A stretch of DNA of 64,000 nt, from contig CAWCKJ010000004.1 of NCBI GenBank assembly GCA_963796105.1, positions 1,376,001 through 1,440,000 of the forward strand, read 5' to 3'. Source of the DNA: a candidate division FCPU426 bacterium. Its GTDB lineage: Bacteria; Oederibacteriota; Muellerivitia; Muellerivitales; Muellerivitaceae. Both the position numbers and the translations under genes were made by a program. Under the pieces are notes generated by a model. It was not told where the DNA came from, did no database searches, and was given only the letters and a program-made list of their open reading frames with translations. Shown in pieces: positions 32,640 to 42,098 of the stretch. The number at the start of each line of letters is the position of its first letter. Within the stretch, counting starts at the first letter, position 1.

Positions 32640-32668
32640 ATCATCCCAAGCCGGTAGGCGAGAACCCT

Positions 32669-33072
32669 ATGCCGGTAGAGGTTCGGGAGCATGCCAATAG
32701 GAGTGATCCTCATACCACCATGGGTTTGTTGCCTTTCTGCCATGTTCAATTATCAGCTAAAAAGCCAAAAAATCCTGCCTATCCTAAAAAAATGAACACC
32801 TTAGGGGATCATATCCGGAAGCATCGCTTAGATCTGGGAAAGCAACAGAAGGAGGTTGCGTTGACCCTGGGGGTAACAGAGTCAACTATTACCGGTTGGG
32901 AACTCAATCAAACCACACTAGTATTACTCACCTTCCCAAAATCATATCCTTCCTTGGGTACACTCCGGAACCCTACAGCAAGAAAACTGACAATATCATC
33001 GAGCAGATGAAACTCTACCGCCAGATTCATGGGCTAACCCAAGAGAAGTTTGCCGAGTTGGTCAAAGTCAAT
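32669..33072 (+). pseudogene. Frameshifted double-HTH XRE-family regulator, cut by the RAYT element
   Basis: TLGDHIRKHRLDLG-x-x-QKEVA...WE in one frame continues as LPKIISFLGY...GLTQEKFAEL in another; ends at the RAYT left arm. Confidence 0.7.
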
Positions 33073-34126
33073 AAACAAAGGGGTCAGGCCATCATTCATC
33101 ATTTTACAAATAGTGTGAGTTGTTTACAATGTCCTAATGCCAAGGCCTAAACGGATCCATTATGAAGGGGCGGTTTACCATGTAACCTCGCGCGGTAATG
33201 AACGGCGAAAGATTGTTATGAATGACGCCGACCTCTGGATGTTTATTCGGTTATTGGGGGAAATGGTTGTAGAGAATGGTGTGTTATGTCACGCTTGGGT
33301 GTTGATGGATAACCATTACCATTTGATGCTGGAAACCCCAAGCGCGAATTTATCAACAGCCATGAAACATTTAAACGCCCAACACACACAAAAATTCAAT
33401 AAAAAGCATTATCGGAACGGACATTTGTTCCAGGGGCGGTATAAGGCCATTATTGTGGAGAAAGACAGTTATTTAAAGGAATTAAGCCGGTATGTGGTAT
33501 TGAATCCGGTAAGGGCCCGGATGGTAAAACACCCCAAAGACTGGAAGTGGAGTAGTTATCGGGCGACAGCGGGATTTGATAGGGCGGAAAAATGGCTGGA
33601 AGTGGACTGGTTATTAGGGCAGTTTGGAAAGGAAAGAAAAAAGGCGCAAAAATCATACAGGACTTTTGTGGAAGAGGGGATGGGGAAGAAAGAAAAGCCT
33701 TGGGATGATTTGTATTCGCGTATATACCTGGGTGGTAAGGAGTTTTTGGACAAGGTTCACGAAGTAGGGCAACGTCACAAACATTTGGATGTACCGAAAT
33801 ATCAGAAACATGTGGTAAAGCAAGATCCGAAAGAAGTGCTGGAGAAAGTAGGAAGAATGTATGGTGAAAAACCGGAGGAAATATTGAGGGCAGGCAAAAG
33901 GGAGTCGGAAGCCCGGGATATGGCGATATATTTATTAAAGAGAAAATCAGGAATGAGTTCCAAGGCGATAGGAATAAAGATGGGGGTGGGGGAAAGCGCG
34001 GTGGGAAACCGATTGATGAAGATCAAAAAAAGGTTGGCGGAAGACGAAAAGTTTGCGCAAAAGCTGATAAAGTGATGAATGATCACTGCCACACGCTGCG
34101 GAGCGTGTGGCCTGACCCCTTTGTTT
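33073..34126 (+). mobile_element. RAYT element bounded by perfect 19-bp inverted repeats
   Basis: AAACAAAGGGGTCAGGCCA at 33073-33091 and its exact reverse complement at 34108-34126. Confidence 0.8.
33137..34075 (+). CDS. REP-associated tyrosine (Y1/HUH) transposase with a C-terminal HTH
   Basis: YHVTSRGN, LMDNHYHL (HUH), GHLFQGRYKA, RYVVLNPVRA (catalytic Tyr), WSSY; DnaA-C-like tail (EARDMAIYL). Confidence 0.93.
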   Translation: MPRPKRIHYEGAVYHVTSRGNERRKIVMNDADLWMFIRLLGEMVVENGVLCHAWVLMDNHYHLMLETPSANLSTAMKHLNAQHTQKFNKKHYRNGHLFQGRYKAIIVEKDSYLKELSRYVVLNPVRARMVKHPKDWKWSSYRATAGFDRAEKWLEVDWLLGQFGKERKKAQKSYRTFVEEGMGKKEKPWDDLYSRIYLGGKEFLDKVHEVGQRHKHLDVPKYQKHVVKQDPKEVLEKVGRMYGEKPEEILRAGKRESEARDMAIYLLKRKSGMSSKAIGIKMGVGESAVGNRLMKIKKRLAEDEKFAQKLIK

Positions 34127-34153
34127 CTCTTTCAAACCCATTTACGATAACGT

Positions 34154-34765
34154 TTAAAGGATAGCCGCTATAATTGGTGAAATTAATTTGCTCATTATCG
34201 CAATAAGCGATTTTTTCTGGATCAACCCCTCGATGGGTGAGGACATGATGGCGTCGTTGGTTTGATACTGCCAGACCAGGTTACCGCTGGCCCCCAAAGC
34301 CCTCAAAACCCCGTCGCTAGAGCCCACAAATATTCGGCTATTGTTGACTCCCTGGCTTAATATCGCCGGGCTGGAATAGACTTCACCTTGGGTTTGGTAA
34401 TTCCAAAGGGGACTCCCGTCCAATCCGTATGCCTGAATCTGCCCATTCGTCGTGCCGATGACAAGCATGCCACTGTTGTTGGTTCCCAAGTCCAAAACCA
34501 CCGGGGCCGAGGAATAGGAAACCCTTGGATTTCCAAGGGAAACCTGCCATTTTTTTGTGAAAAAAGAGTCGTCAAAAGGCTGATAAAAGCCCGTATTTTG
34601 GGGGATATAACGGAATTGGGGCCATGAAAGGGCCGCTGGTGTAGGGGTATTTGTCGGATTACTTTGAGCAAAGGCATAGCCCAACCCAAAAGATATTAAA
34701 AATCCAATGGTTATACAAATCCTTTTGGACCAATTTATTAAATTATTTAATCGGCAACTTCTCAT
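34154..34765 (-). pseudogene. Secreted PQQ-like (BamB-type) beta-propeller protein, apparently truncated
   Basis: Signal peptide, PTNTPTP linker, WPQFR, SSAP/SSPA and LWNYQT/VWQYQT blades; stops after about 3 blades next to the RAYT arm. Confidence 0.65.
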
Positions 34766-34916
34766 ATTTAATAATCCTTAAAACTTTTTGGCATAAAATT
34801 CTTAAAATTAAATTTAGCCAAAACATTCAGAAGATCGATATCAAGTCGTTATGTCAGTAATAATATTTCAGCACAATTTAAAATTATTATTTTCAACTAA
34901 AATAAAGTCATAAATG

Positions 34917-35441
34917 TCATTTTAATATATGAATACTCTGAATAACTAAACCTGCCATTCGATCCAATTCCGGATTACCGCCAATGCATTCAGCAAAAAT
35001 AACCCACCATGCAACACCTTTTTTTATATTCATCATTTTTATTACCATATTTTTTTTTGTCTCAGTATTTACAAAAGTTCCTATTGTAATCATGGCATCA
35101 TCACCGGCCCATTTTAAACGATAATTTTTATATTTAAGATTTTGATATTTTTTGGTGTTTGAATAAATAATTTTGAGAGACCCGTTTGCTGTCGTTTCAA
35201 GATCTGCTTTATTAGATTTATTTGTGCCGACACCAATTCGAAAGTCACTATACGTCTTTGACGTGCATTCAACAAAAGAATCGTCTTTCGTATTTTTTTC
35301 ATTCATTTGTTCCAGTGGGAATGGGCTTTCAAAAGAAAAATGGTACATGTCGAATGAATATTTTCTCCATTTACCAGCCGGTACATCCGCATATAGAATT
35401 ACAGGAACTAAAAATAAAAATAATAATTTCCTCGAAATCAT
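34917..35441 (-). CDS. Hypothetical secreted protein, AT-rich
   Basis: 174-aa ORF with a signal peptide and AAGGGG RBS; low GC relative to the flanks. Confidence 0.6.
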   Translation of the reverse strand: MISRKLLFLFLVPVILYADVPAGKWRKYSFDMYHFSFESPFPLEQMNEKNTKDDSFVECTSKTYSDFRIGVGTNKSNKADLETTANGSLKIIYSNTKKYQNLKYKNYRLKWAGDDAMITIGTFVNTETKKNMVIKMMNIKKGVAWWVIFAECIGGNPELDRMAGLVIQSIHILK

Positions 35442-35546
35442 TTTTTACCCCTTATCGTGGAAACAAACTCGTTACCCCTCCAAAACCATACGCGTTATAT
35501 GACAAAGCTTGCCAAATTGACCCAAACCATCAGGAAGGGTGACTGG

Positions 35547-36212
35547 TCATTTAGCTTTTCTAATAATCACAGACATTACAAGTGTTTGCAAAACCCCAAT
35601 TGCGATAAAAATTTGTTCAGCATCGACAGAAAAATCTCTCACATATAAAAAAGTGTAATAAATATAGGTGTTCAAAATCATAGCGATCAGCAGGGCTGAA
35701 AATCGGATCAAAAAGTTTTTAAAATAAGAAAAATTTACTGGTCGTAATTTAACGCAAACCATCTCTGCGACGATCGGTAATAAAACGACTTCAAAAATGG
35801 CAAAAAATATAAATGTATTTTTTTGTTTGCCAAATATTTCAAAAAGGGTTGTAAAAACAATAAAATTTAAAATGAATAGGAAATACCAAATTAAACCCTT
35901 AACACCAGAAGTATAACTTCCATTATTTAGGCACTGATAGACACCGTATGAAAATAAAATAATGAACAAAGGGATGACAAAAAGATTTTTGGGATCGTTG
36001 AAATAATTCCAAATTAAAATAATACTTGCCGCACCAATAACAATTAAAAACAAATTAAATCGTTCGCCTATTATTTTATTGAGTTGCATCGGGTGTTCCT
36101 GTGTTACATACATCTGTACTATTATCAGTATTATCATTACCCCATATTTGTTGCGCCCCAGGGGATAATAAATCCGATTCAAATGAAGGGCCCGGATGGT
36201 AAAACACCCCAA
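35547..36212 (-). CDS. Hypothetical multi-pass membrane protein, AT-rich
   Basis: About 6 hydrophobic segments; true start is probably downstream of 36186, because the ORF 5' end overlaps the RAYT duplicate. Confidence 0.55.
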   Translation of the reverse strand: MGCFTIRALHLNRIYYPLGRNKYGVMIILIIVQMYVTQEHPMQLNKIIGERFNLFLIVIGAASIILIWNYFNDPKNLFVIPLFIILFSYGVYQCLNNGSYTSGVKGLIWYFLFILNFIVFTTLFEIFGKQKNTFIFFAIFEVVLLPIVAEMVCVKLRPVNFSYFKNFLIRFSALLIAMILNTYIYYTFLYVRDFSVDAEQIFIAIGVLQTLVMSVIIRKAK

Positions 36213-36563
36213 AGACTGGAAGTGGAGTAGTTATCGGGCGACAGCGGGATTTGATAGGGCGGAAAAATGGCTGGAAGTGGACTGGTTATTAGGGCAGTTT
36301 GGAAAGGAAAGAAAAAAGGCGCAAAAATCATACAGGACTTTTGTGGAAGAGGGGATGGGGAAGAAAGAAAAGCCTTGGGATGATTTGTATTCGCGTATAT
36401 ACCTGGGTGGTAAGGAGTTTTTGGAAAAAGTCCACGAAGTAGGGCAACGTCACAAACATTTGGATGTACCGAAATATCAGAAACACGTGGTAAAGCAAGA
36501 TCCGAAAGAAGTGCTGGAGAAAGTAGGAAGAATGTATGGTGAAAAACCGGAGGAAATATTGAG
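36186..36563 (+). pseudogene. 378-bp duplicate of the RAYT gene interior
   Basis: Matches 33511-33888 with about 4 substitutions by eye. Confidence 0.92.
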
Positions 36564-37020
36564 CCTTGAGAAACCCTTTTTCAGGGTCGGTGAGATTCCT
36601 GGCCATTTGTCTCATCCAAATCTCATTGGGGTGGTTGGTTATGCCCGCGAAATGAACCTGTCGGTTCTTGAGGCGGATGAAGAACAAAATGTAATAGGTG
36701 ACAAGCCCAAAGGGGGTTAATACTTCCCAGGTGAAAAAGTCGGTGGCTGCCAGGTTATCCCAATGATTTTCTAAGAATTCCTTCCAAGTCAGGCAGTTCC
36801 GACGATCAGGAGAAGGTGATATGCCATTTCTTTTCAGGACATTTTGGATGGATTCCGGGTTGGTTTCAAACCCCAAGATTCGCAATCTCCCTACCAATGT
36901 CTCATATCCGTCGTTTGGATTTTCCAGGGCGAGTTTTACGATTAAATTCTCTAGTTCGTGGTTTATCCTCGGCCTCCCTGGTCTTTTTTGGAAATAAGAA
37001 TAATCCCATTTCTTCAGCAA
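36564..37020 (-). pseudogene. Integrase-core (rve) transposase fragment
   Basis: PGRPRI...LA-x-ENP-x-x-GY, TWKEFL, ATDFFT, FFI-x-x-x-x-RQV-x-x-AG-x-T-x-HP, QMARNL; cut at both ends. Confidence 0.85.
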
Positions 37021-37254
37021 AGAAAATTGCCCTTGAAGTGGAAAAGGCCGTTTACAAATACGTTCCCTTGAAACTCATAAAACCAACCTCGAAAGAGGCT
37101 AAGACCATTGAATCGGCTGTAAAACGCACGGATAAAAGCGGGAAATGGACTTCGGCGGAGGCATTGATTAAGAAGCACGGTTGAGGCTTGCACATATGAC
37201 GGACCAAAAAAAACCAACAAAAAAAGATCACCTTAACAATTTAGAAAAACAGGG

Positions 37255-37299
37255 ACCCCGTTCAAGCAGAATAAGGCTTTTACGGGGTTTTTCTTTTTA
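37255..37299 (+). terminator. Possible intrinsic terminator
   Basis: ACCCCGT...ACGGGGT stem followed by a T-rich tail (TTTTCTTTTT). Confidence 0.35.
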
Positions 37300-37317
37300 T
37301 GACTGATCAAACAGTAG

Positions 37318-37440
37318 AATGCCACCAGTAATGTGGGCGGGTTATCCTCCCTGGACGACGAATGCCAGCAGGAATGTGGGCAGGTTATCCTTCCCTGCCA
37401 ACGGATGCCAGCAGGGATGTGGGCGGGTTATCCCCCTGGA
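37318..37440. repeat. Three tandem 43-bp repeats
   Basis: ATGCCA(G/C)CAG..ATGTGGGC(G/A)GGTTATCC units starting at 37318, 37361 and 37404. Confidence 0.85.
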
Positions 37441-38030
37441 ACTGGGTTTCGGGAACTGGGTTGAGGGCTTATGGAACTAGGTTACGGCCTCTCGGAACTG
37501 GGTCCAGCCTCCCGGAACTGGTTTGTGGGCTCCGGGAACTGGGTTATCACCTCCTGGAACTGGGTTGCGAGTTCCTGGAACTCTGGAGTCCCTCGCACCT
37601 CAGCGAGTGGCAGGGGGCTTGGAACCACGGGAATCCGAGAATCTTGGAACCTTGTAACATTGGAACTGGCCTGGAACCACTGAAATTCGAGAATCCTGGA
37701 ACCTTGGAACTCTGGAACTGGCCTAGAACCACAGGAACTCGGGAATCTTGGAACTTTGGAGTCCCTCGCACCTCAGCGAGTGGCAGGGGGCTTGGAACCA
37801 CGGGAACCCGAGAATCTTGGAACCTTGTAACTTTGGAACTGGCCTGGAACCACTGAAATTCGAGAATCCTGGAACCTTGGAACTTTGGAACTGGCTTGGA
37901 ACCACGGGAACCCGAGAATCTTGGAACCTTGTAACTTTGGAACTGGCCTGGAACCACGGGAACTCGGGAGTTCTGGAATCTTGGAACTCTGGAACTGGCC
38001 TGGAACCACGGGAATCCGAGAACTGGCCGG
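37438..38030. repeat. GGAAC-based satellite: 21-bp-phased array, then ~8-bp units with a 173-bp higher-order duplication
   Basis: GGAACT at 37452, 37473, 37494, 37514, 37535, 37556 and 37577; the block from 37577 is repeated at 37750. Confidence 0.9.
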
Positions 38031-38094
38031 GCCCCCCCCACTATGCTGAAGCTTCGTGGGGCAGGCCTGGGAAATCAAGAGTCCTGAAACTGGG

Positions 38095-38688
38095 TTATTT
38101 TTTACCGGCCACAACCGCCTGGATCTCGGAATCAATCTCTTCCGGGGTTTGTTTGGAAACGAACCTTTTCAAGGGGTGTCCCTGGCGGTCAATGAGGAAT
38201 TTGGTGAAATTCCAGCCGATATCGGTTTTGCCATCGGGATCCGGCTCCGCCTTCTTCAGGAACTGGTAAAGGGGGTGGGCATTGTCCCCGTTGACCTCAA
38301 TTTTTGCGAAAAGGGGGAATTTTACCCCATAGTTGGATTCGCAAAAACTCTTGATCTGAGATTCGGTACCTGGCTCCTGGCTTTTGAACTGGTTGCAGGG
38401 AAACCCCAAGATTTCAAAGGCTTGGTCTTTGTACTTTTCATACAAGGCTTCCAATCCCTTGTATTGGGGGGTGTAGCCGCATTTACTGGCCACGTTCACG
38501 ATGAGAAGAACCTTGCCCTTGTATTTGGCGAGCGTGACATCTTTCCCGTCAATGGTCTTTACCTTGAACCCATAAACGGATGCGGACTCGTTATCCTTCT
38601 TTGCGGGACCCGATACAGAAGCGATCGCCAAACCGCCAACCGCGGCCAAACCCAGTATCCCCATGAGAATTGAAATAAGCCTCATCAT
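38095..38688 (-). CDS. Glutathione peroxidase family protein with a signal peptide
   Basis: VNVASKCGYTPQY, GFPCNQF-x-x-QEP, WNFTKFL. Confidence 0.95.
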   Translation of the reverse strand: MMRLISILMGILGLAAVGGLAIASVSGPAKKDNESASVYGFKVKTIDGKDVTLAKYKGKVLLIVNVASKCGYTPQYKGLEALYEKYKDQAFEILGFPCNQFKSQEPGTESQIKSFCESNYGVKFPLFAKIEVNGDNAHPLYQFLKKAEPDPDGKTDIGWNFTKFLIDRQGHPLKRFVSKQTPEEIDSEIQAVVAGKK

Positions 38689-38843
38689 GTTCTCCTCTCC
38701 TGAACCAGGATTTCTTTTAGTACAACTTCCTTAATAATCCTTAGTTCTGGGGAATAAAGCTAGGGGTGCGGTTAAAAATCAGGCCGGAATATGCATAAGA
38801 TTAAAATTTGTGAGAAATTAAACTGGATTTGGCTGAATTTGGT

Positions 38844-38920
38844 TTACTGGTTGATGGTCGTGACGAAGGATTCCTTCCCGTTTTCGATCTTCAGGACTAC
38901 CGCCGATTTCACCGCGTCGC
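38844..38920 (-). repeat. Displaced 77-bp copy of the livK 3' end
   Basis: Encodes DAVKSAVVLKIENGKESFVTTINQ*; 66/77 nt identical to 40817-40893. Confidence 0.9.
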
Positions 38921-38936
38921 ATTCACTACTACCCTT

Positions 38937-39438
38937 TTATGCTAGTCGTTTCGTGACTTTTTGATAAATCGAACGGGCTGTTTCAAGGGCCTTCTGCGCT
39001 TCATCCCGGCCTGGGAAAAACTCCTCGTCATAACGAACATCAACAGCATATGGAGCAAGCCCCATGATTTCTTCCGCCGGCAAATTCAGGCCGGGAAACC
39101 GTGAATTGACGCGTTCCAGCAGTTCCCCCAAGTCGTGCCGGAGGGGATATTCCTCATCCGAGGAAGCCAATAAAGCCTTGAGGCATTTTTCAACAGCCTG
39201 CTGGGCGTGGAAACAGCCCATATCATAGGCATGGCCCGACGTTAGGATGGCTTCCGACGCGAATAAATCGTTGGATGCTTTGGCTAATCCGGCCGCTTTG
39301 AGTTCCACGGGCTTGCCCGTGGGTGAAAGGCCACCGTGCTGAAAGCACGGCAAGCGAAGCTTGAATTTTGATTTTAGTACCACGGGCTTGCCCGTGGGTA
39401 TCTATAAGGGCGCGGGAATGGTCACGCGGATTTTTCAT
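38937..39438 (-). pseudogene. HEPN domain gene interrupted by a 118-bp insertion
   Basis: CFHAQQAVEKCLKALL, HDL and RY HEPN motifs; removing 39284-39401 restores MKNPRDHSRALIAKASNDL... as one 127-aa frame. Confidence 0.88.
39284..39401. mobile_element. Non-autonomous 118-bp hairpin-ended element (IS200/IS605- or REP-like)
   Basis: Two direct copies of the palindrome CCACGGGCTTGCCCGTGG near the ends, a central CCGTGCTGAAAGCACGG hairpin, and CTA at both junctions. Confidence 0.8.
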
Positions 39439-39742
39439 AAAGAACCCTGCCCTCCCGTATAACGGTTGTGATGAAGTGGTTCTTAACGCCCTTCCATTCC
39501 TCGATTTCTTCCGGGGTCCACCAAACAATATCCTTGGCAACCCCCAAACCCGAAAGCCTTTGGTAAAGCCCCACGGTCCTTTTCCATCTTGGCAGGGAAG
39601 AAGGCGCGATCACCAATAGGTCAAAGTCGCTGTCCGGATTGTTCATGCCCCGGGCACGGCTTCCGAAAAGGAGAACCTTCAAGGGTTCCACTTCCTGACG
39701 GATACGCTTAACCATTTCAGGCAATAATTGGTCTTGAGTCAT
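39422..39742 (-). CDS. Minimal nucleotidyltransferase (MNT) antitoxin
   Basis: LFGSRARG...DSDFDLLVI and a C-terminal EGRVLY; overlaps the HEPN start. Confidence 0.92.
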   Translation of the reverse strand: MTQDQLLPEMVKRIRQEVEPLKVLLFGSRARGMNNPDSDFDLLVIAPSSLPRWKRTVGLYQRLSGLGVAKDIVWWTPEEIEEWKGVKNHFITTVIREGRVLYEKSA

Positions 39743-39745
39743 TTT

Positions 39746-39859
39746 CTAACCTTCCAAACGGATTCCGGGCATGCGCCCAATCCCGGCAAGCTTTAAATCG
39801 CTTTTGGCGAAGGACATCCATCGATGGGGGTCATCCGCGTCCAACGGTTTACGCGGCAT
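39746..39859 (-). pseudogene. Truncated HEPN gene (37 codons)
   Basis: MPRKPLDADDPHRWMSFAKSDLKLA...PGIRLEG*, a HEPN-type first helix overlapping the upstream MNT stop; ends before the CF-x-AQQ motif. Confidence 0.65.
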
Positions 39860-40199
39860 ATACTTCTTTCCCCTCGCGTAATACATCCCGGTAGATTAAG
39901 CCAGGGCTGTTTCCATACTTGGTCAGGTCCCCTGGAGTGGCCACAAGCACATCAAAAGGAATTTTCAATCCTTGAATGTCCCGGTACAATTTTTGGGCCG
40001 TGTGGCGCCGGTGGGTACCTTCAGGCATAACAACCATGAGATCGATGTCGCTATCCGGCCCCATCCTTCCCCTGACCGCCGATCCAAAAAGAATGATTCG
40101 GAGAGGGTGAACAATCTCCACGATTTGATCGACTATTTTTTCAACAACTTGCGTTTGCTTGCCCAAATTAAACCCCCAAATATTTCTGAACGTATACAT
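39849..40199 (-). CDS. Minimal nucleotidyltransferase (MNT) antitoxin
   Basis: ILFGSAVRG-x-x-x-PDSDIDLMVV, EGKEVY; likely TTG start at 40166. Confidence 0.9.
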   Translation of the reverse strand: MYTFRNIWGFNLGKQTQVVEKIVDQIVEIVHPLRIILFGSAVRGRMGPDSDIDLMVVMPEGTHRRHTAQKLYRDIQGLKIPFDVLVATPGDLTKYGNSPGLIYRDVLREGKEVYAA

Positions 40200-40264
40200 T
40201 ATAGTTTGTTTGACGCGGCAGGGTCTACCGCTACAAGAGTTTGGCTGGATTTGTGAGCTTCAGG

Positions 40265-40286
40265 CTACGGGTTGACGGTCGTGACG
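40265..40286 (-). repeat. Displaced 22-bp copy of the livK 3' end
   Basis: Reverse complement CGTCACGACCGTCAACCCGTAG encodes VTTVNP*, identical to the LivK C-terminus but with synonymous codons. Confidence 0.7.
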
Positions 40287-40304
40287 GTGGAATTCTCCGA
40301 CAGA

Positions 40305-40529
40305 TCAAGAAATCTCAAATTCAGAACGGGGAACCCTGCTTTGGTGGATGATGGATGCCAGGGTTCCGATCTTCAATTCCCGGTGATCAGGGACAGGAAC
40401 CGTTATGGTGGTACCCTCTTTGCGGAGTTGCATAACTACGTGACTGCCTTTTTGGCGGACCTGAGCGAACCCGTTTTTCTCCAAAATTCGGCATACTTCC
40501 TTACCGGAAAAAACGCGGAGTTTACCCAC
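40305..40529 (-). CDS. hicA: HicA family toxin
   Basis: L-x-x-NGF-x-x-VRQKGSH...VP-x-H-x-EL-x-x-GTL-x-SI. Confidence 0.93.
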   Translation of the reverse strand: MGKLRVFSGKEVCRILEKNGFAQVRQKGSHVVMQLRKEGTTITVPVPDHRELKIGTLASIIHQSRVPRSEFEIS

Positions 40530-40746
40530 GTGCTACTTCAAAACGCGTGACGAATACATCCCCGCGAAGTCTTTGGTTGATTTCGGAGGGGTCGGCGCAA
40601 TCCAAAAAAAGCTCTACGGCTTCCTTCAAATTGGCCGTTGCTTCCTCGACCGTTTTTCCCTGGCTGGCAACATCCAACTCCGGGCACAGGGCCACGTACA
40701 TATCATTTTCTCTCTCTAACACCGCTGTGAAACTAGTTAAGGTCAT
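40522..40746 (-). CDS. hicB: Short HicB family antitoxin (hicB-hicA order)
   Basis: YVALCPEL-x-x-ASQG-x-T-x-EEA-x-x-NLKEA-x-EL; no DNA-binding tail. Confidence 0.92.
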   Translation of the reverse strand: MTLTSFTAVLERENDMYVALCPELDVASQGKTVEEATANLKEAVELFLDCADPSEINQRLRGDVFVTRFEVARG

Positions 40747-40816
40747 GTCTGACTCCCATGCGTTGATTATACAGTAATCAGACCTTTTAAACCAAAAGTC
40801 AGGTTAATAACAAGGA

Positions 40817-41944
40817 TTATGGGTTTACAGTCGTGACGAAGGATTCCTTGCCCTTTTCGATTTTCAAGACCACAGCCGATTTCACCGCGTCGCGGTTCTC
40901 GTTCAGGCTGATGTTGCCTGTCACGCCGGGAAAGTTCTTGGTGGCCGCGATAGCGTCCCTAATATCCTGGGAGCCGAGGCTCTTGGCGGTCTTCAGGGCC
41001 GCCGCAAGGACTTCTACCGCGTCATAGCCCAAAGTGGCCAGGGCGTCGGGGATGTGGCCGAATCGGGTCTTGTAGTTGTTCACGAAATCAACCACCTTGG
41101 GGTCGGTTGACATGGATGAGAAGTGGGTGGAGAAATAACAGCCTTCCAGGGCGGTTCCGCCGATCTCAAAAAGCTTGCTGGATTCCCAGCCGTCGCCGCC
41201 CAAGAGGGGAATCTTCAATCCCAGCTCGCGGGCCTGCTTGGCGATAAGGCCCACCTCGGTGTAGTAACCAGGCACGAAAATGACGTCCGGCTTCACTTCC
41301 CGGATGCTGGTCAATTGCGACTTGAAATCGATGTCGCCCTGGACGTAACTCTGGTCTATGACAATGGTCCCGCCCTTTTCCTTAAACCTTTTGATGAAGT
41401 AGTCCGCCAGGCCCATGCTGTAGTCGGATTTCTGGTCGCGGAAAATGGCCGCCGTCTTGGCCTTGAGGTGGTCGAGGGAGAAATCAGCCATGACCTGTCC
41501 CTGGAAGGGGTCGATGAAACAGACGCGGAAGATATAGTCACCCTGCTGGGTGACTTTGGGGTTGGTGGAGGAGGGGGAGATCATGGGGGTCTTGCGGTCC
41601 TGGCAGATGGGCGCCGCCGCGAGGGAGAGGGAACTGGCGACTTCCCCGATGACCACTTGGACCTGGTCCTGGGTGATGAGCTTGGTGACCGCTACCGCGG
41701 CTTGCTCTGGTTTACCCTGGTCGTCCAGGGTGGTGACGACGAGTTTTTTGCCGTTGATGCCCCCTGCCGCGTTGATCTCATCCGAGGCGAGGAGTACGCC
41801 CTCGTGGTTGGACTGGCCGAAAGTGGCCTGGCCCCCCGTGAGGGAGGCGAACTCCCCGATCCGGATCTCGTTGGGATTGATCTTTGGCCCGCAGGAAAGG
41901 CTGAGAATTCCGAGAAAGGCTAAAGCTACGATTAAATGACGCAT
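40817..41944 (-). CDS. livK: Branched-chain amino acid ABC substrate-binding lipoprotein
   Basis: Lipobox LSLSC, INAAGGING, DDQG, SSTNP-x-VT, FRVCFIDPFQG, GGDGW; ATG at 41944 after AAGGAG. Confidence 0.9.
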   Translation of the reverse strand: MRHLIVALAFLGILSLSCGPKINPNEIRIGEFASLTGGQATFGQSNHEGVLLASDEINAAGGINGKKLVVTTLDDQGKPEQAAVAVTKLITQDQVQVVIGEVASSLSLAAAPICQDRKTPMISPSSTNPKVTQQGDYIFRVCFIDPFQGQVMADFSLDHLKAKTAAIFRDQKSDYSMGLADYFIKRFKEKGGTIVIDQSYVQGDIDFKSQLTSIREVKPDVIFVPGYYTEVGLIAKQARELGLKIPLLGGDGWESSKLFEIGGTALEGCYFSTHFSSMSTDPKVVDFVNNYKTRFGHIPDALATLGYDAVEVLAAALKTAKSLGSQDIRDAIAATKNFPGVTGNISLNENRDAVKSAVVLKIEKGKESFVTTVNP

Positions 41945-42098
41945 GTTGGACTCCTTCATGACTTATGGGTGGGTTGAAACGTGGGTTAGGATAGGCAAGA
42001 GGCGGGAGCGCGTCAAGAACGTGGAACGTATGCCCGCGCAAGGAATTGCGGGGTTTTACTACATTTTGTAATGGCTTGGCCTTGATATAATCCCACCC

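Follow-up and report, generated by a model that had tools for sequence, protein, structure and literature searches.

How do toxin-antitoxin (TA) gene pairs come to lie between copies of the last codons of a host gene? The question is raised by a livK-like gene in a 64,000-nucleotide (nt) stretch of DNA, hereafter the window, from a candidate division FCPU426 bacterium (assembly GCA_963796105.1, contig CAWCKJ010000004.1), where the live end of livK is followed by 2 stranded copies of itself, with TA genes between them. Comparisons within this genome and with related genomes show that such stranded ends are divergent working alleles of the host gene and not identical duplicates gone to decay. 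The layout likely records the entry of TA pairs into chromosomes by ordinary recombination, with no integration enzyme. Coordinates are positions in the window, the genes of the livK locus are all on the minus strand, and G000 and G001 denote the genome under study (9,956,664 positions searched) and a same-genus genome, respectively.

Cassettes behind the livK end

The order downstream is livK, hicB, hicA, a 22-bp end copy, MNT, a HEPN stub, MNT, HEPN and a 77-bp end copy, as an earlier reading made from the sequence alone (the sequence-only reading) had described it. The features are as follows.

40817..41959, minus strand: host gene, livK-like branched-chain amino-acid ABC substrate-binding protein (PF13458, E=2.7e-62; NF011933 below cut-off)
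40817-40893, minus strand: live livK end, last 77 bp
40766..40771, minus strand: TATAAT 5' of hicB, putative promoter (seen in the sequence; missed by the consensus scan)
40522..40746, minus strand: hicB-like antitoxin, 74 aa, overlapping hicA (PF21748 and PF15919 weak, below cut-off)
40305..40529, minus strand: hicA toxin, 74 aa, frame intact (PF07927, E=5e-19)
40265..40286, minus strand: middle stranded livK end, 22 bp, encoding VTTVNP*
40198..40227, minus strand: promoter-like site TAGACC-18-TATAAT before the MNT-HEPN block (10/12 consensus; TATAAT at 40198-40203)
39849..40199, minus strand: MNT (minimal nucleotidyltransferase) 1 (PF01909, E=7.6e-12; NF047752 below cut-off)
39746..39859, minus strand: HEPN N-terminal stub, 37 aa, ending just before MNT 2 (22/35, or 63%, to the N-terminus of the full HEPN at a relative's locus, L345)
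39422..39742, minus strand: MNT 2 (PF01909, E=1.6e-11)
38937..39438, minus strand: HEPN 2, with a frameshift near its start from an inserted element (body PF05168, E=3e-23; N-terminus in another frame)
39284..39401, minus strand: hairpin-ended miniature element, 118 bp, inside HEPN 2
38844..38920, minus strand: distal stranded livK end, 77 bp, encoding DAVKSAVVLKIENGKESFVTTINQ*

By their family domains, hicBA and MNT-HEPN are predicted to be adjacent TA gene pairs; HicA, both MNTs and HEPN scored above the Pfam cut-offs and HicB below. Both HEPN toxins of the distal block look broken, whereas hicBA is intact. The splitting of HEPN 2 by the 118-bp element had been missed by the sequence-only reading. 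This element occurs in the genome as 4 near-identical and 2 diverged (92%) copies and is apparently a later arrival than the cassette; we take it to be IS200/IS605-like from its anatomy, and its ends are common to two ~520-bp elements (G000 C14:47555-48074 and C7:20618-21137). Each cassette had also been credited with its own TATAAT: both hexamers are present, and only the second (40198-40203) scores as part of a promoter. The 4 promoter-like sites at the locus do not exceed the number in shuffled sequences (2.9 +/- 1.7). The DNA between the 77-bp copies measures 1.9 kb, and livH/livM-like ORFs come after livK in relatives.

Stranded livK ends as alleles of livK

The distal copy is identical to the live end at 66/77 positions and to the G001 ortholog at 71/77. 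As the sequence-only reading noted, most of its 11 differences from the live end are synonymous (8 synonymous and 3 non-synonymous; p=9e-4 against neutral decay). The middle copy is closer to the same-genus ortholog (20/22) than to the distal copy (19/22) or the live end (18/22); by blastn it is weak (E 0.25-0.58). In the whole genome, the live 22-mer recurs at 18/22 or better at 3 sites only, all at this locus. The 14-mer that follows the stop codon of the middle copy (40240-40253) matches the one that follows the distal copy (38828-38841) at 13/14 positions.

In a tree of 26 ends of 74 bp, the live end, the distal copy and the G001 ortholog formed a single clade (support 98/90), and the sole other livK-like gene of the genome is 30% identical. 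An origin of the copies from a paralog, which the sequence-only reading had named as the finding that would count against it, is thereby ruled out. The last residue of the distal copy is Q, where 24/24 orthologs have P, which suggests some decay after displacement. Because its toxins are broken and its end is decayed, the distal cassette probably arrived first; alternatively, a ready-made stack can have arrived at livK in one piece.

No stranded livK end with a stop codon was found after livK in 20 relatives, which yielded one weak 21-nt match lacking a stop, and no stranded copy was found in 74 metagenome loci, which yielded one weak 26-nt match lacking a stop (74 usable of 80; 2 unparsed and 4 too short were dropped). 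No genome of the same species came to light; the best livK ortholog is 94% identical at the amino-acid level. The proposal that livK serves as an integron-like platform, a hotspot dedicated to cassettes, is therefore rejected, and the survey described below found many unrelated genes affected in the same way.

Beyond the distal copy, positions 32640-38843 hold ~6 kb that is missing at the corresponding place in G001. The region carries a glutathione peroxidase gene (38095-38688), tandem repeat tracts of 52-bp, 21-bp and 43-bp units (37317-38022), an IS481-like remnant, AT-rich ORFs and a REP-associated tyrosine transposase (33137-34075) that has a 98% copy elsewhere on the contig.

Stranded gene ends across the genome

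All 2666 open reading frames (ORFs) of at least 200 aa in G000 were surveyed for orphan copies of their own parts. Orphan copies of 3' ends were found downstream of 14 ORFs and upstream of none (p=1e-4), orphan copies of 5' starts upstream of 10 ORFs and downstream of 3 (p=0.09), and orphan copies of gene interiors at 18 and 10 ORFs (28 together). Two of the 14 3'-end cases are doubtful: one host ORF is perhaps spurious, and the other overlaps its repeat by just 24 bp. The host genes include recG, tatD, umuC and genes for a tetrapyrrole methylase, an MFS transporter, a GH44 hydrolase, an ABC ATPase and a zinc dehydrogenase. The 14 copies are 50-451 bp long, to which the 22-bp livK copy is to be added, and the cargo ranges from 0.3 to 6 kb.

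TA cargo was found at 7 of the 11 loci scanned (of the 14), namely hicBA at 3 loci, higBA, brnTA with higBA, FitA-PIN, and DUF433-DUF5615 with MNT-HepT. The remaining scanned cargo is AAA_14-DUF4143, AlbA_2-HATPase, an unnamed two-gene pair, or no recognised gene. Five of the 18 HicA, HigB and HEPN matches of the genome fall inside the 0.57% of it that lies between 3'-end copies (p=5e-8). The expectation of the sequence-only reading that a genome scan would turn up displaced 3' ends flanking TA pairs was thus borne out.

The live and stranded ends are 82-97% identical. Over 15 alignments at the 14 loci, the pooled pN/pS was 0.17 (106.5 synonymous and 62.5 non-synonymous differences; p=2e-29). 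Since the differences are mostly synonymous, the ends diverged as working alleles, and the cargo came with the gene end of a relative. At livK, recG and the MFS gene, the 2 copies are as different from each other as each is from the ortholog of another species; these comparisons show that DNA of another lineage came in, at these 3 genes from about the distance of another species. The sequence that follows the stranded recG copy matches what G001 has past its recG stop (score 146 versus 46), and the G001 recG directly abuts the next gene, which makes it a clean empty site for recG. The identity of a stranded copy to its live end was rejected as a clock: stranded copies at the C3 glycosyltransferase locus share changes that have no counterpart in the live end.

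Several cassettes show further features. The recG cassette (L135:4035-4733, G000 C3) holds two adjacent ORFs of 107 and 116 aa with no Pfam or NCBIfam match, a candidate new TA pair. The higBA of the tatD cassette (C12:187300-188300) has a twin, 96.5% identical over 963 bp, at a locus without a stranded gene end (C3:540075-541036); therefore, TA pairs also move by another route. In the mirror arrangement, where the stranded piece is a 5' start lying upstream of the gene (L142, L144 and L145), a yceG-like gene is preceded by higBA, an unknown gene by 'mobile mystery' A/B, and a type I hsdR by AAA_14-DUF4143.

Recurrence in related genomes

In 40 loci of ~8.5 kb around HEPN or HigB matches, hand-picked mainly from genomes having several matches, an orphan end lay downstream of 9 of the 208 ORFs and upstream of 3; the 3 upstream matches, read from the output, are an antisense shadow and a tandem-repeat region. 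Seven of the 9 downstream cases enclose TA genes, and the hosts include nrdJ, mutS, alanine dehydrogenase and metH. Among livK-centred control loci, such ends were found for 0/188 ORFs in the family and 5/1770 overall (Fisher p=0.004 and 2e-6, with control ORFs that were not de-duplicated and kin that are not independent). Few cases were found at HicA-centred loci of G028 (2/15 loci) and at 3-kb loci (3/72, with 2 mirror matches), and therefore the rate depends on lineage and window size. Over 11 copies in other genomes, pN/pS was 0.23. The repeated, integrase-free replacement of gene ends proposed by the sequence-only reading is thus supported by many loci and genomes in which TA cargo is bounded by gene-end copies.

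A check blind to cargo found a stranded nrdJ end in 4/24 family genomes (3/23 without the discovery genome) and a stranded mutS end in 2/27 (1/26), after 2 nrdJ matches without a C-terminus and 2 mutS matches at contig ends had been dropped. G075 carries a two-copy stack resembling that at livK and composed of nrdJ, DUF4258-DUF2283, a 101-bp copy (99/101), MNT-HepT, MNT, DUF4160-DUF2442 and a 75-bp copy, in which two cysteines are lost. In G006, the flank after the stranded nrdJ copy matches G021 (84 versus 20). G072 and G073 have in common a distinct nrdJ tract of ~375 nt; the live end of G072 shares residues with G073, and its stranded copy resembles and groups with G011 and G022, so that the native end is not in every case what a stranded copy represents. 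The nrdJ genes of G011, G072 and G073 look mosaic, which is compatible with both a single crossover and the linear-donor route discussed below. Unlike livK, nrdJ looks like a true hotspot.

The gene following nrdJ differs in nearly every family genome (L368-L391). In G072, two ORFs of 102 and 97 aa with no Pfam or NCBIfam match (L434:5762-6419) lie between nrdJ and its stranded end and are another candidate pair, and the nrdJ repeat runs ~90 nt beyond the stop, through a terminator-like hairpin. In G073 (L432), a mini copy (LNCGSTSGCS*) begins ~40 nt past the nrdJ stop, with no gene between. G039 has a cassette array of a different type, in which small genes, hicA among them, are separated by ~100-nt repeats, 3 units in all, that contain a terminator-like hairpin (L164:880-2760). 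A TA-rich region of G001 (C3:1-52000; L179-L181) contains 5 hicA and 2 HEPN matches and many nested direct repeats.

Route of entry and alternatives

In an E. coli experiment with DNA of one-sided homology, 56 of 60 clones carried partial duplications (109-950 bp in the 14 sequenced), which arose via trimming, ligation and a single crossover and were reported to be ten times commoner than homology-facilitated illegitimate recombination (HFIR) (PMC3240628). We favour a comparable route, with a probability of about 0.5, in which a donor fragment of a related bacterium, composed of a gene end and a TA pair, circularises and enters by one homologous crossover in the gene end. The donor piece would be trimmed, ligated to a circle and integrated by host recombination; integration would restore a whole gene and leave the spare end behind the cargo, and repeated entry would build a stack. 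Mid-gene pieces would break the gene and be purged, and ends and starts alone would survive; the polarity of the orphans would reflect this selection, because only end or start fragments restore the gene. Cargo flanked by repeats could pop out again, which would leave addictive TA pairs over-represented among the survivors, and the pairs would decay once sequence divergence slows pop-out. The TA enrichment likely reflects such retention of addictive cargo between repeats.

The cassette boundaries vary within a site: 22 and 77 bp at livK, 162 and 180 bp at the C3 glycosyltransferase and 75 and 101 bp at the G075 nrdJ. No junction 6- or 8-mer common to the 14 copies exceeded shuffles, and no att core or hairpin is shared. 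No integrase was found in the livK cassettes, as the sequence-only reading had stated, or in any scanned cargo, in a search for the tyrosine type only. No tyrosine-recombinase match lies within 1 Mb of livK on the contig; the genome has some elsewhere.

Several observations weigh against entry of a circle by one crossover: (i) neither a circle nor an excised joint was seen, nor an empty site in a conspecific; (ii) G001 is not a clean empty site for livK, which has one end and no cassettes there, because a further 6 kb after the position of the distal copy is also missing; (iii) the reciprocal mosaic that a crossover in the repeat would leave is not resolvable at livK, where comparison with G001 showed no block pattern; (iv) a perfect-match run at the 5' edge of the repeat, as a mark of the crossover, was not significant (combined p=0.15); (v) flank polarity was uninformative at 5 of the 6 G000 loci tested and at mutS; (vi) the 82-97% identity of donor and recipient ends should make the crossover rare, though part of the divergence may be later drift; (vii) the E. 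coli duplications came from an engineered plasmid in conjugation (PMC3240628); and (viii) several cassettes lack TA genes, and of the 18 HicA, HigB and HEPN matches one is found behind a displaced start and 12 are outside both kinds of cassette. Gene-end cassettes are therefore one route among several.

The first alternative, HFIR of a linear donor, seems to us rather unlikely. Here the homologous crossover would lie upstream in the gene and an illegitimate joint, expected to show 3-10 bp of microhomology, inside the recipient gene end, and the old last codons would be left behind the cargo. Such events would give the same allele-replacement signature and variable lengths; HFIR has been put forward for the stacked effector-immunity arrays of Vibrio (PMC5361080), and comEC and dprA, which bear on the natural competence that HFIR would need and count for the circle route as well, are present in 5/5 genomes searched, and also in 10/14 controls over cut-off. 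The ~375-nt nrdJ tract of G072 and G073 fits a donor tract longer than the stranded copy, but a foreign stranded copy brought in by a circle would explain G072 just as well. Possible donors exist in G010, where higBA-like ORFs (named from sequence) come right after nrdJ with no copy. HFIR products, however, generally carry ~1-kb deletions and not duplications, and in E. coli HFIR was ten times rarer than single crossover (PMC3240628). The sequence-only reading had suggested homology-facilitated recombination; the allele replacement fits it, whereas the usual deletions do not, and the circle crossover fits better. Both routes fit our data, which do not separate them; the single crossover of a circle is preferred because HFIR leaves deletions and single crossover gave gene-end duplications (PMC3240628).

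An origin from eroded islands, that is, prophages or islands that integrated site-specifically in gene 3' ends and then lost all but a TA pair, is improbable. Elements of the e14-in-icd type do leave a diverged C-terminal pseudogene, icdC (PMC13626634), a streamlining of mobile elements to TA islets has been proposed (PMC13617665), and the genome has tyrosine recombinases elsewhere. Against this, the scanned cargo holds no integrase relic, more than 20 unrelated host genes are affected with no shared core, and where a gene has two copies their starting points differ, whereas one integrase would reuse a single crossover.

Plain target duplication, the insertion of foreign DNA with an identical resident copy (by break repair or template switch) followed by divergence, is very improbable. 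The anatomy is that of an 'insertion with long target duplication' (PMC2853133), and some copies are near-identical, such as the proximal nrdJ copy of G075 (99/101) and the one at tatD with a 284-nt perfect run. A dead copy, however, would change at all codon positions, whereas pN/pS is only 0.17-0.23, and the copies at livK, recG and the MFS gene differ from each other as much as each does from the ortholog of another species. Target duplication is thus refuted as a general explanation and may account for single near-identical cases.

That the copies match by chance, are remnants of paralogs or stem from misassembly is scarcely credible: the 22-bp copy is weak by itself, 2 public sequencing runs with small shares of the genome, among which no RNA run was listed, gave no piece spanning the locus and no joints, and 28 orphan repeats of gene interiors were counted, but the genome has 3 matching sites only, the copies are 82-97% and not fully identical, polarity is strict, and the layout recurs in independent genomes, against 0/188 and 5/1770 ORFs in the controls.

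Implications

The entry and movement of TA pairs without transposases or integrases is still argued on indirect evidence (PMC13617665). The scars described here form a countable, directional record, in which the junction is marked, the displaced allele is kept and the donor is often another species; because they mark the junction and the displaced allele, the entry route becomes testable by genome comparison and by a transformation assay. It also follows that core genes can have last codons of foreign origin, and that a scan for ends of this kind uncovers new small selfish or defence genes, such as the unnamed pairs at recG and nrdJ.

A bolder extension of single-crossover entry, which we consider doubtful, is that TA pairs are recombinase-free mobile elements addressed by a host gene end. 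Small circles with one copy of the end would pop out, be transferred between species of a genus and re-enter by one crossover, addiction would hold the unit, and any conserved gene terminus (recG, mutS, nrdJ or livK) would be a potential attachment site. If true, such gene-end-addressed circles would be a general route for the many chromosomal TA pairs without an adjoining mobility gene.

Comparison with known systems

The anatomy is already known for restriction-modification (R-M) systems and prophages, which limits the surprise. The livK cassette stack is not an integron or CALIN: its scanned ORFs include no IntI or other integrase, the nearest tyrosine-recombinase match is >1 Mb off, and its boundaries are host-gene copies with no shared junction motif in place of attC sites. 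None of the 25 inverted repeats listed lies at a boundary, in a comparison that applied no attC covariance model.

In the E. coli single-crossover case, too, a partial gene-end duplication of variable length surrounds foreign DNA with no integrase; that case is a laboratory construct with identical homology, whereas the present loci are natural and divergent and the intermediate is inferred (PMC3240628). The effector-immunity arrays of the Vibrio type VI secretion system and the orphan C-termini of Rhs likewise form ordered stacks without an integrase, where new modules displace the older 3' pieces in the downstream direction, and the Vibrio arrays have been likened to integrons (PMC5361080). 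The displaced part there is a variable toxin tip at a dedicated locus, whereas here the host is a housekeeping gene, the end stays equivalent and many genes are involved. In e14/icdC, as in our loci, a diverged 3' end comes in with the new DNA and the former end is left stranded as a fragment; e14 is a 15-kb prophage at one site (PMC13626634), and the cassettes here are 0.3-6 kb, at many genes, with variable boundaries and no integrase found. TA islets (Belot et al. 2026, PMC13617665) are also clusters of TA pairs without mobility genes, in which toxins are often decayed; they are modelled to spread by double crossover in flanking core genes, and the term 'direct repeat' occurs 0 times in the main text of that paper. 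In the open-access literature, which excludes subscription papers and the supplements of PMC2853133 and PMC13617665, we found no account of TA genes enclosed by stranded ends of a host gene whose allele has been replaced.

Among published classes, the R-M insertion with long target duplication (Furuta, Abe, Kobayashi 2010, PMC2853133) comes closest. In both, long direct repeats of variable length enclose a small cargo of the addiction type, no mobility gene is present, and the repeats, which often extend over a start or stop codon, leave the gene intact; a cycle of pop-out and re-invasion has been hypothesised for the R-M insertions (PMC2853133). The 1.9 kb between the 77-bp livK copies falls within the limits given in that paper (insert <20 kb, duplication >30 bp, no other mobile element), with the 118-bp element inside HEPN 2 taken as a later arrival, as it apparently is; the 22-bp copy falls below the 30-bp limit. 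The differences are as follows: (i) the R-M cargo is R and M genes, for which a DNA-breaking activity is proposed (PMC2853133), whereas the cargo here is hicBA and MNT-HEPN, without that activity; (ii) the repeats in some rows of Table 2 of that paper match at 43/46 to 47/47, whereas those here are 82-97% identical with a synonymous bias, which points to replacement by the allele of another lineage; and (iii) two-copy stacks are a feature of the present loci. Thus, the layout is real and general, and its novelty is modest: a known kind of insertion without an integrase is found here loaded with TA genes and acting across species.

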